Assembly: GCA_963832165.1 (NCBI GenBank)
Contig: CAWHTE010000001.1
Coordinates: forward strand, 736,001 to 800,000
DNA: 64,000 nt
Direction: 5' to 3'
DNA from: an uncultured delta proteobacterium
GTDB taxonomy: Bacteria; Myxococcota_A; UBA9160; SMWR01
Shown: positions 8,205 through 15,988 of the stretch, in pieces
How positions within the stretch are numbered: the first letter of the stretch is position 1
How the letters are laid out: every line of letters begins with the position of its first letter
Translations under genes and position numbers: made by a program
The notes under the pieces: model-generated
Databases searched by the model: none
Seen by the model: the letters and a program-made list of their open reading frames with translations, nothing else
What the model was told of the DNA's origin: nothing

Positions 8205-8930
8205 ATGCTGCGTTCCCCTGCCGTTTCGCTCGCTGCCCTCCTGCTCAGTGCAGCTTCACCCGCTGCCGCCGTGACGATAGGTTTTGAGGAGTTCGCGCAC
8301 GGCGACATTGTCGCGGCGCCCGTCGCGTCCCATGCGGGCTACACGCTCGTCGTGGAGAACCTTTCCAGGACGTTCGACGCCGGGGTCGCGTTCGACACCG
8401 GCGAGACGGGTACCGCCGACCTCGATCTCGAGCGCGGCAGCGGCTTCGCGACCGGAAACATCGCGGATGGGGTTCTCGGCAACATCCTGGTGCTGCAGGA
8501 GCGCGACAACTGCAGCGCGACGAGCTGCTCCGACCCGGACGACGAGGCCAGACGGCCGGCCGGGGAGTTCACGTTCCTGCTCGACGAGATCGCAACGGGC
8601 GGGTTCTCGTTCGATCTGGTCGACGTGGATGACGAAACCGCCGAAAATGGCCGGATCACGTTCCTCTTGTTGGAGAACGGCCAGGTCGACGTGTCGGTGG
8701 CGTCCTACTCGTTCGCGGAGTTCCTGGGCTTCGGGCAGGACGTCGACTACGGCAACAACTCGGCCAATCACATCGAGTTCACGGAGCTGGGCGCATTCAA
8801 CGCGTTCACGATCGTGATGGGCGGCTCGGGCGGGATCGACAACATCGTCGCGGTGCCCGAGCCGACTACCGGAGCACTGCTCGTCCTCGGCTTGATCGGT
8901 CTCGCCGCGTATACGCACCGTCGCCGCTGA
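8205..8930 (+). CDS. PEP-CTERM sorting domain secreted protein
   Basis: Signal peptide; C-terminal VPEPTTGALLVLGLIGLAAYTHRRR. Confidence 0.9.
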   Translation: MLRSPAVSLAALLLSAASPAAAVTIGFEEFAHGDIVAAPVASHAGYTLVVENLSRTFDAGVAFDTGETGTADLDLERGSGFATGNIADGVLGNILVLQERDNCSATSCSDPDDEARRPAGEFTFLLDEIATGGFSFDLVDVDDETAENGRITFLLLENGQVDVSVASYSFAEFLGFGQDVDYGNNSANHIEFTELGAFNAFTIVMGGSGGIDNIVAVPEPTTGALLVLGLIGLAAYTHRRR

Positions 8931-9023
8931 CAGCCGGCGCGCGCAGCCCGACGTTTGCGCGCGGGCTCCGGATCGTCGAACGTCCCCCGACCGGCCCGGT
9001 CGGGCCGTTCGTAAAGGAGTTCC

Positions 9024-9911
<888 letters not shown>

Positions 9912-9913
9912 TC

Positions 9914-11104
9914 TTGTTCCTCGATCTCTTCTACGGCCTGCGCGACGAGGGCGTCCCCGTCGCGATCCAGGAATGGATGATGCTCATGCGCGCGCTCGCG
10001 ATGGGCCAGCACGGGTCGTCGCTCGACGGGTTCTACCACGTCTCGCGCGCATGCCTCGTGAAGAGCGAGACCTACTTCGACGCATTCGACCGCGTGTTCG
10101 CGCGCGTGTTCCGCGGCGTGGAGGGCGAACTCTCGGTCACCGACGAGCTGCTCGAGTGGCTCAAGAACCCCGAGAACTTCAAGGAGATGACCGACGAGCA
10201 GCGCGCGATGCTCGAGGAGCTCTCGCGCGACGAGCTCTTGCGGCGATACCTCGAGACGCTGCAGCGCCAGACCGAGCGCCACGACGGCGGCGGGCGCTGG
10301 ATCGGCACGGGCGGCCACTCGCCGTTCGGTCACGGCGGCGAGCATCCCACCGGCATCCGCGTCGGCGGGCAGAGTCAGCGCAAGTCGGCGATGAAGGTCG
10401 CCGAGGAGCGGCGCTACAAGGACTATCGCACCGACGAGGCGCTCGACCTGCGCGGCACGGTCGTTGCGCTCAAGCGATTGCGCCAGCTCACGCGCCAGGG
10501 GCGCGCCGACGAGCTCGACCTCGACGGGACCGTCGACGAGACGTGCCGCAACGCGGGCGAGATCGAGCTGATCTTCCGGCCCGAGCGCAAGAACAACGTG
10601 CGCCTGCTGCTGCTGATGGACGTGGGTGGGTCGATGGACCCGTACTACAAGCCGGTGAGCCGGCTGCTCACTGCGCTGCACGCCGCTCGCGGCTTGCGCG
10701 ATTTCCGCGCCTACTACTTCCACAACTGTGTGTACGAGAACATCTACACCGACGCGCGGCTCCTGCGCAGCTCGGCGGTGCCCACCGGGGATCTGTTCCG
10801 GCAGCTCGACGAGCGCTGGAAGGTGGCGATCGTGGGCGACGCCGCGATGCATCCCCACGAGCTCATGAGCGCGTACGGGAACATCGATCCGCGCAAGGAG
10901 ACCGAGACCGCGGGGATCGTCTGGCTCCAGCGGATCGCCGATCACTTCGAGCGCAGCGTCTGGCTCAATCCCGACCCCGAGAAGAGCTGGCGCTCGACGC
11001 GCACGACGGCGGCGATCGCGAGCGTGTTTCCGATGTTCCATCTCTCGATCGACGGGCTCGAGAATGCGGTCGCGGCGCTCGTGGGAGCGCGCAAGGTCGC
11101 CTAG
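9914..11104 (+). CDS. VWA-domain (CoxE-like) partner of MoxR
   Basis: MIDAS-like LLMDVGGSMDPY, WIGTGGHSPFG, YFHNCVY, VGDAAMHP; TTG start 2 nt after the MoxR stop. Confidence 0.85.
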   Translation: MFLDLFYGLRDEGVPVAIQEWMMLMRALAMGQHGSSLDGFYHVSRACLVKSETYFDAFDRVFARVFRGVEGELSVTDELLEWLKNPENFKEMTDEQRAMLEELSRDELLRRYLETLQRQTERHDGGGRWIGTGGHSPFGHGGEHPTGIRVGGQSQRKSAMKVAEERRYKDYRTDEALDLRGTVVALKRLRQLTRQGRADELDLDGTVDETCRNAGEIELIFRPERKNNVRLLLLMDVGGSMDPYYKPVSRLLTALHAARGLRDFRAYYFHNCVYENIYTDARLLRSSAVPTGDLFRQLDERWKVAIVGDAAMHPHELMSAYGNIDPRKETETAGIVWLQRIADHFERSVWLNPDPEKSWRSTRTTAAIASVFPMFHLSIDGLENAVAALVGARKVA

Positions 11105-11144
11105 AATCGCTCTCCCAATCTCTTCAACTCGAAAGGAGTCCCCC

Positions 11145-11627
11145 ATGCCGATCGCAGTGGGCGCCAAGGTTCCCGACGTGAAGATCAAGACGATGGTCGA
11201 CGGCAAGATGCAGGACGTCTCGACGGGCGAGCTGTTCGCGGGCAAGAAGACCGTGCTGTTCGCGGTTCCGGGCGCGTTCACGCCGACCTGCTCGATGCAG
11301 CATCTGCCGGGCTTCATCGCACATGCCAAGGACATCAAGGCGAAGGGCGTCGATCTGATCGCGTGCATCTCGGTCAACGACGCATTCGTGATGGATGCGT
11401 GGGGCAAGGACAAGGGCGCAGGCGACAGCGTGATGATGCTCGCCGATGGCAACGCCGACTTCGCGAAGGCGATGGGTCTCGAGATGGACGGCAAGGGCAT
11501 CGGATTCGGCACGCGCTCGCAGCGCTACGCCGCGGTGATCGAGAACGGCGTGGTCAAGGCGCTCAACGTCGAGAAGCCGATGAAGTTCGAGTGCAGCAGC
11601 GCGGACGCGATCCTCGACGCGCTCTGA
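11145..11627 (+). CDS. Peroxiredoxin (Prx5 type)
   Basis: VPGAFTPTCSMQHLPG, SVNDAFVMDAW, RSQRYA; AAAGGAG RBS. Confidence 0.93.
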   Translation: MPIAVGAKVPDVKIKTMVDGKMQDVSTGELFAGKKTVLFAVPGAFTPTCSMQHLPGFIAHAKDIKAKGVDLIACISVNDAFVMDAWGKDKGAGDSVMMLADGNADFAKAMGLEMDGKGIGFGTRSQRYAAVIENGVVKALNVEKPMKFECSSADAILDAL

Positions 11628-12196
11628 TGGATCTCGCTGCGCTCTCCGCGCTCGCGCTGCCCGACCCGTCGGGTGCCGCGCACCGCCTCGGCGACTACTG
11701 GTCCGAGCGCCGCGTGGCGCTCGTGTTCCTGCGCCACTTCGGGTGACTCTTGTGCCGCGAGCACGCCGCGCAGTTGCGCGACGCATATCCGGAGGTGCAA
11801 CGCGCCGGCGCGGAGGTCGTGGCCGTCGGCACGGGCCCCTCGATGGCGCAGGCCTTCGTCGAGGACTATCGGATCCCGTATCCCGTGCTGATCGACGCCG
11901 ACGCGAGCGCGGCCAGGGCAGCGACAATCGGGCGGATGAGCTTCTTCGGGATGTTCACGCCCGCGTCGTACCCGGGCACGATCCGCGCGTGGCGGGCGGG
12001 GCACCGGATCGGCGCGTCGGGCAAGCGCGTGACGCAGCTCGCGGCGACATTCGTCATCGCCCCGCAGCAAGTCGCGCGCAGCGAGCCGCAGGCGAGCGAA
12101 GACCATCAGGGCGGGACGCTGGTCTACGAGCATCGCAATCGGCACGGCGCCGACCATCCGCCGCTCTCCGAAGTGCTAGCGGCTCTACGCGGTTAG
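11627..12196 (+). CDS. Peroxiredoxin-like (AhpC/TSA, SelU/PRXL2-like) selenoprotein; Sec at TGA 11744-11746
   Basis: ATG overlaps the Prx stop (TGATG). The frame reads VALVFLRHFG-TGA-LLCREHAAQL, a UxxC motif where homologues have CxxC, and continues in frame to the stop at 12196. A candidate SECIS hairpin follows. Confidence 0.85.
11767..11780 (+). promoter_or_regulatory. Candidate bacterial SECIS apical hairpin (CGCGC-AGUU-GCGCG)
   Basis: 25 nt separate the UGA from the loop; G is at the second loop position followed by U, as in the general bacterial SECIS model. Confidence 0.5.
12067..12110 (+). repeat. Family B repeat, copy 2, in-frame inside the selenoprotein CDS
   Basis: GCAAGTCGCGCGCAGCGAGCCGCAGGCGAGCGAAGACCATCAGG; translated as QQVARSEPQASEDHQ. 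Confidence 0.9.
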
Positions 12197-12212
12197 TCGG
12201 AGGAATCGAGAT

Positions 12213-13001
12213 ATGACGCGGCTCGACGGAAAGGTGGCGTTCATCACCGGCGCGGGATCCGGGATCGGCTTCGCGACCGCGCTGCGCTTCGCGCGCGAGG
12301 GCGCGATCGTGGCCGGACTCGACCTCGCCGAGTGCCCCGACTGGAAGCAGGTCGCCGACGCGGCGCGCGGCACGAGCTTCTACACGGCGGACGTGCGCGA
12401 TGCTGCGGCGCAGAATGCCGCGGTGACCGCGGTGCTCGAGCAGCACGGCGGGATCGACGTGCTCGTGACGGCCGCGGGGATCGCGGGCGGCGGCCCCGTG
12501 CACCTGATCACCTCCGAGGACTGGCAGCGCGTGCAGGACGTGAACCTCACGGGCACGTTCCTGTCGGCGAAGGCAGTGCTTCCGTCGATGATCGCGCGCC
12601 GCCGCGGCAGCATCGTCACGATCGCGAGCGTCGAGGGCCTCGAGGGCTGCGAAGGCGGCAGCACGTACAACGCGTCCAAGGGCGGCGTCGTGCTGCTCAC
12701 CAAGAACATGGCGATGGACTACGGCCGGATCGGCATCCGCGTGAACTGCATCTGCCCCGGCTTCATCGACACGCCGCTGTTCCGCAAGACGGTGGGCGGA
12801 GCATTTCCGGAGGCGAACCGCGAGCGGATCCGCGAGCAGCACAAGCTCGGCCGCTTCGGGCGTCCCGAAGAGATCGCAGGTGCGGTGCTGTTCCTGGCCT
12901 CCGACGACGCGTCGTTCGTGTCGGGCGTCGCGCTGCCCGTCGACGGCGGCTACACCGCGGGGCACTCGGCGGGCGTCGCGGAGATGATGGGGCTCGTGTA
13001 G
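12213..13001 (+). CDS. SDR family oxidoreductase
   Basis: TGAGSGIG, YNASKGG, RVNCICPGFIDT, LPVDGG. Confidence 0.92.
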   Translation: MTRLDGKVAFITGAGSGIGFATALRFAREGAIVAGLDLAECPDWKQVADAARGTSFYTADVRDAAAQNAAVTAVLEQHGGIDVLVTAAGIAGGGPVHLITSEDWQRVQDVNLTGTFLSAKAVLPSMIARRRGSIVTIASVEGLEGCEGGSTYNASKGGVVLLTKNMAMDYGRIGIRVNCICPGFIDTPLFRKTVGGAFPEANRERIREQHKLGRFGRPEEIAGAVLFLASDDASFVSGVALPVDGGYTAGHSAGVAEMMGLV

Positions 13002-13036
13002 GGCGGGAGAAGCGAGCGAAGCGAGCGGATCCCGCC
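12998..13036 (+). repeat. GTAG-type REP (family A) providing the SDR stop codon
   Basis: GTAG-GGCGGGA-(spacer)-TCCCGCC; a GCGCGCC-GAA-GGCGCGC hairpin follows at 13037-13053. Confidence 0.8.
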
Positions 13037-13067
13037 GCGCGCCGAAGGCGCGCCGGGCAACCCGGGC

Positions 13068-15083
13068 TCAGAGCGCCGCGGAGACCGCGGTGGCCTCGTA
13101 GATCGCCTCTTCGAACGTGCGCGGCGCGACGCAGTCTCCGATCCGGTGCACCGCGGCGCGGCCCCCCGCGAGCACGGCCGCGAGCGCGTCGTCGGGAGCG
13201 AGCGCATCGGACAGCACCACGGTGTCGGCGGCGATCTCGCGCTGCGCTCCGTCGGCGAGAGCGATGTGCACGCGCTCGCGCTCGATCGCGACCAGCTGCG
13301 CGCCGCTGTGGCGCGCGACGCCGTGCTCGGCGAGCAGGTGGACCGCGCGCCAACGCCGCGGGGGCGCCATCTCGGGCGCGAGCACCGCCTGCGCCGCGAT
13401 CAGCGACACGCTCGCGCCGAGCTCGGCGAGGCGCTCCGCGATCTCCACGCCCACGAGTCCGCCGCCGACGACGGCGACGTGCGTTCCGTTCGCGAGCGCG
13501 GTCTCGATGCCGCCGCGCAGCTGCCACGGGTCGAGCACGTGTGCGGCATCGGCTCCGGGGATGCGCGGCCGCATGCGCTGTGCGCCGACGGCCACGACCA
13601 CGGCGTCCGGATCGAGCTCGGCCACGAGCGCCGCGTCCACTTCGCAGCCGAGCCGCAGCTCGATCTTCGAAGCCGACACGGCACGCAAAAGCTCGTCGAG
13701 CAGCGGCGCGTTGTTCGGCTCGGCCGACACGGCCGCGAGCGCGAGACCGCCGAGCTCGGGCTCGCGTTCGCACAGCGTCACCGCGTGTCCGCGCAGCGCG
13801 AGCAGGCGCGCCGCCTCGAGGCCGGCCGGGCCACCGCCCGCTACGAGCACGCGCCGCGGCCGCGCGGCGGGCTCGACGCGCAGCTCGGCCTCGCGGCCCG
13901 CGCGCGGGTTTACCGCGCAGCTTGCAGCGCGGCGCAGGAAGATGTTCCCGACGCAGCGATAGCTGTAGATGCAGCGGGAGACTGCGGCGTCGCCGCGCGC
14001 GAGCTTCGCGGGCAGCTCGGGATCGGCGATCAGCGCGCGGCCCCACGCCACGAAGTCCGCATCGCCGTCGGCGATCGCGCGCTCGGCGGCGTCGGGTGCG
14101 ATCCGCCCGACGGCGATCACGGGCACCGCGACGCGCCGCTTGATGCCGCGCGCGAGATCGAGATAGGCCGACGGCTGATGAGGCAGCGGCGCATCGGTGA
14201 ACGCGATCGCGGAGCGCGGATCGGCGTAGGCCGACACGTGCACCGCGTCGAGCCCCGCAGACGCGGCGAGCTCTGCGGTGCGCTGCGCGTCGGCCTGCGT
14301 GATTCCGTTGGCCTTGTGGAACTCGACGCCGTCGAGCCGGCACCACACCGGGAACGCGTCACCGACCCGGTCGCGCACGGCGCGAATCACGCGCAAGAGC
14401 ACGCGCGCGCGGTTCTCGAGCGGCCCGCCGTACGCATCGGTGCGGTGATTCGTCGAGAGGGAGAGGAACGAGGAGATCAGGTAGCCGTGTCCCGCATGGA
14501 TCTCGATACCGTCGAACCCCGCGCTGCGCGCGCGCTCGGCGGCATCGGCGAACCAGCCGCACAGCGTCGTGATGTCGTCTTCGGTCACGACGTGGAACGC
14601 GAGGCGGCTGGTCGGCTGCATGAACGGCGAGCTGACGGCCGCGATCTCCTCCGGCAGGAGCGCGTCGAAGAGATCGCCGGCCTTCTCGGGCAGCTCGGTC
14701 GGCACCCAGAGCGGCCGCCCCGCGATCACGTCCTGGAGCGAGGTCTTGCCCGCGTGCTGGAGCTGCACCGCGATCGCGGCGCCGTGTGCGTGCACGCGGT
14801 CGGTCATCGCGCGGAACGCCGGAACGAACTCATCGCGCGAGAGGCCCATGTTATTCGGGTTCGAGACGCCCGCGGGCCACGCGACCCCCGTGACGCCGAC
14901 GATGATCATCCCGACGCCGCCCTTCGCGCGCTCCTCGTAGAAGCGCGTGATCCGCTCGCCGGGAGTGCCGTCCTCCGCCTCGAGGTTGGTGCCCATCGGC
15001 GTGAGACAGATCCGGTTGCGCAGCGTGAGCGAACCGATCTGCCCCGGCGACAGCAGATGCGGATACCGCGCGGCGATCGTCAC
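13068..15083 (-). CDS. NADH:flavin oxidoreductase (2,4-dienoyl-CoA reductase/OYE-like)
   Basis: LRNRICLTPM, GFDGIEIHAGHGYLISSFLS, YGGPLENRAR, VAGGGPAGLEAA. Confidence 0.9.
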   Translation of the reverse strand: MTIAARYPHLLSPGQIGSLTLRNRICLTPMGTNLEAEDGTPGERITRFYEERAKGGVGMIIVGVTGVAWPAGVSNPNNMGLSRDEFVPAFRAMTDRVHAHGAAIAVQLQHAGKTSLQDVIAGRPLWVPTELPEKAGDLFDALLPEEIAAVSSPFMQPTSRLAFHVVTEDDITTLCGWFADAAERARSAGFDGIEIHAGHGYLISSFLSLSTNHRTDAYGGPLENRARVLLRVIRAVRDRVGDAFPVWCRLDGVEFHKANGITQADAQRTAELAASAGLDAVHVSAYADPRSAIAFTDAPLPHQPSAYLDLARGIKRRVAVPVIAVGRIAPDAAERAIADGDADFVAWGRALIADPELPAKLARGDAAVSRCIYSYRCVGNIFLRRAASCAVNPRAGREAELRVEPAARPRRVLVAGGGPAGLEAARLLALRGHAVTLCEREPELGGLALAAVSAEPNNAPLLDELLRAVSASKIELRLGCEVDAALVAELDPDAVVVAVGAQRMRPRIPGADAAHVLDPWQLRGGIETALANGTHVAVVGGGLVGVEIAERLAELGASVSLIAAQAVLAPEMAPPRRWRAVHLLAEHGVARHSGAQLVAIERERVHIALADGAQREIAADTVVLSDALAPDDALAAVLAGGRAAVHRIGDCVAPRTFEEAIYEATAVSAAL

Positions 15084-15337: not shown

Positions 15338-15988
15338 TTGCTGTCTCGAATGCTCTCGCTCCCCGCGCTCGCTGTGGTGCTGCTGGTCGCGGGCTCGGCC
15401 TCGGCGATCTCGACCATCTACGACATGTCCGGGTCGACGATGACGATGACCAACCAGGCGTGCCCCGGGGTTCCCCCGTGCACCGTGGCCGTGACCGGCA
15501 CGCTCACGCTCGACGACGACCTCGGCGGCAACGTCTCGCTCACGGATTTGAACCTGGCTCATGAGCCCTACCAGGTGGGGAGCCCGGTCTTCGTCAACGT
15601 GTTCATCGATCGCGACAGCATCACGCTCACCTCCCCTCCGGTCCTGGGTACCGGCACCACGCTCAACGGCAACACCGCATTCGGGTCCGCCTCGATCACG
15701 CAGGTCGGCACGACCAACTGCTCGGACGGTCTGCTCGCCACGTGTGCTCTCGCGGGTCTTCCGCCGGGCAGCAGCCCGCTCACGTCGCCGATTGTCATCG
15801 ACCTCGGGAACTGGGCGTTCAATGGGCTCGGCATTCTGACCGCGAATATCACGTACACCAACAACGCGAACCCGCCTGCTACCGAGATCCTGTACCTGTA
15901 CGGCACGCCGGTGCCCGAGCCCGCGACGGCGGTGCTCATGGTGATGGGCCTGGTCGGGATGGCGATCCGCCGCCGCATGGAGCGCTGA
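15338..15988 (+). CDS. PEP-CTERM sorting domain secreted protein
   Basis: GGAAGGAGG RBS; signal peptide; C-terminal PVPEPATAVLMVMGLVGMAIRRR. Confidence 0.9.
   Translation: MLSRMLSLPALAVVLLVAGSASAISTIYDMSGSTMTMTNQACPGVPPCTVAVTGTLTLDDDLGGNVSLTDLNLAHEPYQVGSPVFVNVFIDRDSITLTSPPVLGTGTTLNGNTAFGSASITQVGTTNCSDGLLATCALAGLPPGSSPLTSPIVIDLGNWAFNGLGILTANITYTNNANPPATEILYLYGTPVPEPATAVLMVMGLVGMAIRRRMER

Follow-up and report, generated by a model that had tools for sequence, protein, structure and literature searches.

The window, by which we mean the whole 64-kb stretch of DNA analysed, contains a gene interrupted by an in-frame TGA. This gene sits between a Cys peroxiredoxin gene, the product of which we take, by resemblance, to be Prx5-like, and a gene encoding a short-chain dehydrogenase (SDR). 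The features are listed in Table 1. Directly upstream of the Prx5 gene is a pair of genes for a MoxR-type AAA ATPase and a VWA (CoxE-like) protein (9024-11104, forward strand); the VWA gene is also upstream in a related genome, G006. Two further forward-strand ORFs, at 8205-8930 and 15338-15988, end in a VPEP motif and a hydrophobic tail, and are presumably PEP-CTERM-like. No tRNA genes were found in the window.

Table 1. Coordinates of features at the locus and of further selenoprotein candidates in the same genome (G000)
Feature	Position	Strand	Comment
Putative -10 hexamer TAGAAT (11102-11107) and Shine-Dalgarno AAGGAG (11132-11137)	11102..11137	+	Ahead of Prx5
Cys peroxiredoxin, Redoxin family	11145..11627	+	160 aa; PxxxTxxC motif; stop overlaps Sec ATG by one base
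Predicted selenoprotein gene	11627..12196	+	189 aa; AhpC/TSA (PRXL2/SelL-like) thioredoxin-fold oxidoreductase; U40-x-x-C43
In-frame TGA, inferred Sec codon (U40)	11744..11746	+	Conserved among relatives
Predicted bacterial SECIS	11764..11783	+	5-bp G-C stem, C.A mismatch, two further pairs; -9.4 kcal/mol
45-nt in-frame insertion, residues 147-161	12065..12109	+	Copy of genome-wide interspersed repeat; loop between two strands
SDR	12213..13001	+	Downstream of Sec gene
Eight further selenoprotein candidates, G000	C2:492863, C1:622918, C4:699480, C7:163540, C2:271873, C1:495417, C7:571983, C7:64015	-, +, -, +, -, +, +, - (in order)	

The interrupted gene starts with the ATG at 11627, has TGA as codon 40, and closes with a TAG ending at 12196. 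As the initial annotation described, the start codon overlaps the Prx5 stop; the TGA at 11625-11627 and the ATG have one A in common. With the internal TGA read as Sec, translation yields 189 residues, including FLRHFG-U-LLCREH. ORFs called with table 11 are split. Thus, one piece stops at 11746 and the other, of 148 residues, restarts at a TTG (11750). The initial annotation had joined these pieces into one frame, and the translated product supports this; a Pfam AhpC-TSA domain (PF00578) extends over the TGA, from residue 9 to 148 (E 6.7e-14; 52.3 bits against a cut-off of 26). Both the domain and a UxxC motif (U40-L-L-C43) are present in the 189-residue protein. It was also anticipated that standard annotation would truncate the gene. 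Accordingly, its entry in the protein collection is the 148-residue piece, P0122.

Such truncation is widespread. Among the best 120 of 255 protein homologues, 74 begin after residue 40 and so lack the active site; hence, the family looks catalytically dead. Reading the TGA as Sec corrects this error. The other 46 homologues, which cover residue 40, all have both C40 and C43, consistent with the expectation of Cys or Sec at this position.

Codon 40 and the downstream hairpin

In 41 related genomes, all 33 matches to the Sec protein at E<1e-10 hold one TGA. Across the class, 61 of 151 genomes have matches at E<=1e-20; every one of the 67 matches holds an in-frame TGA, and one holds two. The position of codon 40 was checked in fetched loci, of which 133 were aligned and 125 are distinct (a scan of genome contigs yielded six loci only). 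In the distinct set, codon 40 is TGA at 109 loci, including the window's own, TGC at 14, and a BCP-type Thr codon at two. The TGA is kept down to about 30% identity. We also masked the catalytic site and built a tree of 122 proteins by a quick search. In this tree, there are seven changes of Sec/Cys status, and at least three of them are forced by well-supported branches. A distant TGA subfamily, with the motif U-P-I/F-C (L026-L028, L030, and L031), has another hairpin, in which the loop G is near +21.

The initial annotation placed a G-C hairpin with an AGUU loop after a 25-nt spacer, as a SECIS element within the coding sequence. The hairpin is present. Its loop, at 11772-11775, follows the UGA by 25 nt and has G in second place, and the stem starts at +18 to +21. 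Bacterial SECIS elements are defined by a loop of 3-9 nt, a stem of 4-16 bp, a G in the first two loop places, a spacing of 16-37 nt, and a minimum free energy of at most -7.5 (PMC13188914, Fig. 2). Here, the loop is 4 nt and begins A-G, the stem is 5 (+2) bp, the spacing is 25 nt, and the energy is -9.4. Taken as a single sequence, the hairpin does not exceed dinucleotide shuffles in stability (z -0.40 to -0.91). Hence, evidence for a SECIS comes from comparative data rather than from the fold of one sequence.

These comparative data are extensive. All 104 TGA forms use TTG for the Leu in the loop, versus 1 of 12 TGC forms; at other Leu codons of the same genes, TTG makes up about 4% (78/1863). 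For covariation, we used 69 distinct sequences, chosen from the 104 with an AGUU loop. In the stem, 90.3% of cells are paired, compared with at most 58% in slid controls. Two-sided changes number 38 in these related sequences, against 15.7 in shuffles (matched in 0 of 500), while the number of pairs with any two-sided change, 4 of 7, was not above shuffles (117/500). Some stem changes alter amino acids yet keep pairing. Between +12 and +60, hairpin probability exceeds 0.5 for 95 of 109 TGA forms and none of the 14 TGC forms. Consistent with this, nearly all Cys forms in the tree of 122 proteins have an eroded hairpin. The proposal of an in-CDS SECIS is therefore well supported, and the sequence comparisons point clearly to selection on the hairpin. 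With the signature fixed in UGA forms and decayed in Cys forms, the family is an unusually clean natural test set for the bacterial SECIS.

For this genome's copy, the AGUU hairpin has a probability above 0.9 in most windows that start at or beyond +12 and end at +40 to +50. In windows that extend 60 nt or more beyond the UGA, another fold prevails (AGUU hairpin <0.01), and this drop counts against a static hairpin here. Transit of the ribosome would refold the AGUU hairpin. By the established bacterial pathway, SelB-GTP-Sec-tRNA would bind the loop and deliver Sec with the UGA in the A site. Note that the loop G, at +27, is farther out than in the genome's other eight candidates (about +18 to +22).

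Predicted selenocysteine decoding in the genome

The genome, G000, is 69.6% G+C and 89% complete. The initial annotation supposed that the organism decodes Sec, and called for a search for selA, selB, selC, and selD. All four were found, above curated cut-offs: selA scores 507 bits (cut-off 268), selB 313 (242), selD 253 (125), and tRNA-Sec 68.6 (47). The selB model was matched over positions 2-351 of 581. The selD gene (C2:278373) is a Cys form in a 788-codon frame; PMC2398784 mentions comparable Ndh-SelD fusions, with CxxC. Related genomes carry selA in 37 of 41 cases, and the four without it have no TGA-bearing match to the Sec protein.

Other genes are similarly split. A genome-wide scan for TGA was noisy, returning 1212 coding-like sites, of which 185 had a hairpin score of at least 15. 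Briefly, 14 sites were chosen by eye, four were dropped on their reading frames, and ten were scanned. Eight of the ten match selenoprotein-type families and have similar G-loop hairpins (Table 1). They are a SelW-like protein, two WAxxUGC ResA-like proteins, two AhpD-like proteins, a membrane-anchored Prx-like UxxC protein, a deiodinase-like protein, and a UGSC protein. This count is a lower bound. Of the remaining two sites, one had no match and the other is in an inositol monophosphatase gene (C11:595707, reverse strand), where the TGA is at a likely Trp position and the hairpin is weak (-6.7 kcal/mol). This TGA is unexplained; it is a nonsense mutation or an assembly error.

We considered whether codon 40 has another meaning. 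Were it a genuine stop, or a sequencing error, the locus would be a pseudogene or two separate genes. TGA is indeed the commonest stop in the genome, ending 908 of 1660 long ORFs, and the inositol monophosphatase gene gives the assembly at least one TGA without an explanation. However, a true stop would hardly be kept at 109 distinct loci, across such divergence, and a single Pfam domain spans it. Furthermore, contigs of four public runs, none of them the source sample, show no letter other than those of TGA at 11744-11746; the TGC or TGT that would have spoken against the initial annotation was not seen. Among sequencing runs in general, the best share of the 64-kb stretch was 0.15, and none reached half. 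We regard this reading as very improbable and, in effect, refuted. Alternatively, UGA might be read through as Trp, Gly, or Cys, by an alternative code or a suppressor tRNA. The entry for P0138, a cluster member, has W at the site, though this is probably due to a gene call with code 4. Since TGA terminates most genes, UGA is not generally reassigned, and the only UCA-anticodon tRNA among the genome's 55 is tRNA-Sec. The homologues that cover the site, among the best 120 of 255, have Cys and never Trp, and the hairpin signature is tied to TGA forms. Readthrough of this kind is hardly credible. Hence, Sec is the preferred reading, and we predict with high confidence that the gene encodes a real selenoprotein. 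We conclude that 11627-12196 is almost certainly one frame, in which UGA is very likely decoded as Sec via the predicted AGUU-loop hairpin, giving a 189-residue protein that is likely a U40-x-x-C43 oxidoreductase.

Family, neighbours, and likely role of the protein

A structure model of the Sec protein has a pLDDT of 86.1 and a pTM of 0.83. Structural comparison ranks human PRXL2B first (Z 21.4, rmsd 2.4, 160 aligned residues), and by sequence no other solved structure is matched over the full length (profile 2-174, E 2e-8). The best NCBIfam match is NF040769, 'SelL-related redox protein' (E 5e-26, residues 9-147). The score of 91.3 bits is below the cut-off of 120; hence, the protein is related to NF040769 and is not a member by that model's cut-off. 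All 47 alignment members match the same model, and the Cys homologue P0026 is also under the cut-off, at 101.8 bits. A full-length Trx/Prx-like fold with R-x-F-G-C-x-x-C, as in PRXL2 (FAM213-like) proteins, is present, in line with the motif family named in the initial annotation. The motif of SelL is UxxU. Here, the second redox position is a Cys codon (TGC or TGT) in all 109 TGA loci, which sets these proteins apart from SelL proper. By sequence, the Sec protein is best described as a UxxC oxidoreductase of PRXL2/SelL-like type and differs from canonical peroxiredoxins. Its role is likely that of a UxxC thiol/selenol-disulfide oxidoreductase. If the chemistry follows that of CxxC enzymes, the selenolate of U40, close to R36, would attack a disulfide or an organic peroxide. 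C43 would resolve the intermediate, and a cellular reductant would recycle the enzyme.

Next to this gene, the SDR is a more conserved neighbour than Prx5, being downstream in all four same-genus orthologues and in a further locus, L108. Most family members seem to have their own promoter. In the 30 nt before the start codon (loci L009-L128), a TAnnnT motif occurs 5-8 nt ahead of the start in 62 of 75 homologues, versus 19 of 2594 control windows. This suggests leaderless transcripts in most homologues. The motif is absent in G000 and G006, the two genomes with Prx5 directly upstream. At the window locus, the putative -10 hexamer and Shine-Dalgarno sequence ahead of Prx5 likely mark the start of a Prx5-Sec gene-SDR transcript, although a sigma-70 scan of 8900-13200 found no full promoter. 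The same scan returned one unrelated terminator-like site. In two loci (L108:1-1501 and L009:2127-2732), the gene just upstream of the Sec gene encodes an LLM-type oxidoreductase and is on the opposite strand. In L108 it separates the Sec gene from Prx5, so loss of this gene would produce the window's arrangement. The L108 gene has no match in G000, a genome 89% complete, at E<1e-30. We propose that the family normally has its own leaderless-type promoter, and that the intervening gene was probably lost at the window locus. This loss would put the Sec gene under the Prx5 promoter, with expression likely dependent on read-through and on translational coupling at the overlap. The arrangement makes co-transcription of Prx5 and the Sec gene plausible.

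Two other roles were weighed against that of an oxidoreductase with a recent, local link to Prx5. In one, the Sec protein is itself a peroxiredoxin-type peroxidase, with C43 peroxidatic. The fold does not separate the possibilities, since Bcp/PrxQ structures score Z 20.7 (Bcp4) and 19.9, the former within one Z unit of PRXL2B. In alignment, C43 takes the place of the peroxidatic Cys of BCP proteins, and source records name fragments 'peroxiredoxin'. However, the PxxxT/SxxC motif is absent; R-H-F-G-U-L-L-C aligns with P-K-D-G-T-P-G-C of BCP, which puts Arg at the Pro position and Sec at the Thr position. The PrxQ model scores 28, against a cut-off of 260. We consider a peroxidase unlikely. In the other, which does not conflict with Sec decoding, Prx5 and the Sec protein are a dedicated pair and the UxxC protein reduces its co-translated partner. 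Both are thioredoxin-fold redox proteins, the genes share a base, and Prx5 is also directly adjacent in G006, while L108 has it within about 1 kb. Yet, among 98 loci with at least 300 nt upstream (fetched loci reach 0.3-2.5 kb), these two and the window are the only three with Prx5 nearby. The stop/start overlap is seen in this genome only, with an 11-nt gap in its place in G006, and Prx5 is not upstream in G004 or G005; the G003 contig ends 711 nt upstream, inside another gene. The TAnnnT motif of most homologues also argues for independent expression. A dedicated pair is thus more doubtful still, and coupling to a Cys peroxiredoxin, which the initial annotation proposed, finds no support as a general trait. 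The preferred reading remains a UxxC oxidoreductase, with a link to Prx5 that, by gene order, seems to have arisen recently and locally and not to be a conserved partnership.

An in-frame repeat and comparison with known systems

The less explained feature of the locus is the 45-nt in-frame insertion. It is absent from all four same-genus genome orthologues, and a contig of public run X2 joins across the site with a net 45 bases fewer. In the structure model, the inserted residues are a low-confidence loop between two strands. Because this copy of the Sec gene carries the 15-residue insertion, and lacks the usual promoter motif, it could be poorly expressed. The repeat of about 45 nt has 88 exact core copies in G000 and is present in 25 of 41 genomes; further copies in the window are near 1127 (forward strand) and 17884 (reverse strand). 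Allowing up to two mismatches, G000 has 171 copies. Of these, 26 are well inside genes (as called from dicodons), and every one of the 26 is in sense orientation, with no antisense copy; the copy in the Sec gene is the one compared with orthologues. The insertion is found in 6 of 37 proteins, at three places on a small tree with modest support, among insertion-free neighbours. Hence, repeated insertion into this loop is suggested. Loss or recombination is possible as another origin of the scattered pattern.

We also considered a REP/RAYT system, in which a Y1 (RAYT) transposase gene is flanked by the repeats, as the source, and found no such link. There are 12 dispersed Y1_Tnp matches in G000 (L162-L165 and eight other places), eleven of a similar type of about 230 residues. 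Copies of the repeat are not clustered at these genes; 11 of the 12 have no copy within 3 kb, and one has copies at -1.4 and +2.3 kb.

It is conceivable, though improbable, that two changes are in progress together at the locus. In this scenario, a leaderless Sec redoxin was captured behind Prx5 as a dedicated selenium-based reductant, and an apparently undescribed repeat with strand polarity inserted more than once into the same surface loop. The part concerning the repeat is the likelier. For the repeat to be undescribed and truly recurrent, the chances seem perhaps evenly balanced; for the Sec redoxin to be the dedicated selenium-based reductant of Prx5, they are poor.

How does the locus compare with known systems? 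The UxxC Prx-like selenoprotein family is already catalogued (PMC13188914, PMC2398784). PMC13188914 gives members with PF00578 the grade 'predicted with high confidence', and PMC9312934 lists them too; a UXXC Prx-like family is described in PMC1088965. The GOS survey gives 225 'Prx-like 1' sequences, and one GOS read on which Prx and Prx-like 2 selenoprotein genes lie side by side (PMC2398784). The subfamily could already stand in the supplementary sequence lists of such papers, and the Sec gene opens no new mechanism. With the Prx-like thiol:disulfide oxidoreductase selenoproteins (UxxC/UxxU; GOS 'Prx-like 1'), it has in common PF00578, UxxC, an in-CDS SECIS, Cys homologues, and predicted status. 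This likeness to the family, of which WP_010940744.1 is the listed representative, is one of domain and motif, and the protein may belong to the same or another subfamily. The repeat-derived insertion and the Prx5 overlap are local to the window's gene.

Human PRXL2B, a prostamide/prostaglandin F synthase (PDB 9us9, 9usa; PMC12938796), likewise has an Arg four residues ahead of the first redox residue (Arg40, equivalent to R36). It differs in having CxxC, not UxxC, and a eukaryotic lipid substrate, and is about 22% identical; the match implies no shared activity.

For the repeat, we found no published description of its peptide, or of in-frame palindromic elements of this kind, which is thin evidence of absence. 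The nearest parallel is with Rickettsia palindromic elements (PMC10969869), which also insert in frame, as interspersed copies, into unrelated genes and add a recurring peptide. Those elements are about 150 nt, rather than about 45, and the repeat here folds weakly (-9 kcal/mol) and, unlike them, has its in-gene copies on the sense strand only. The likeness is one of behaviour and implies no homology. If the repeat does recur as suggested, one peptide has been written in frame into dozens of proteins across a bacterial order, by a process like that of Rickettsia palindromic elements, in free-living bacteria.
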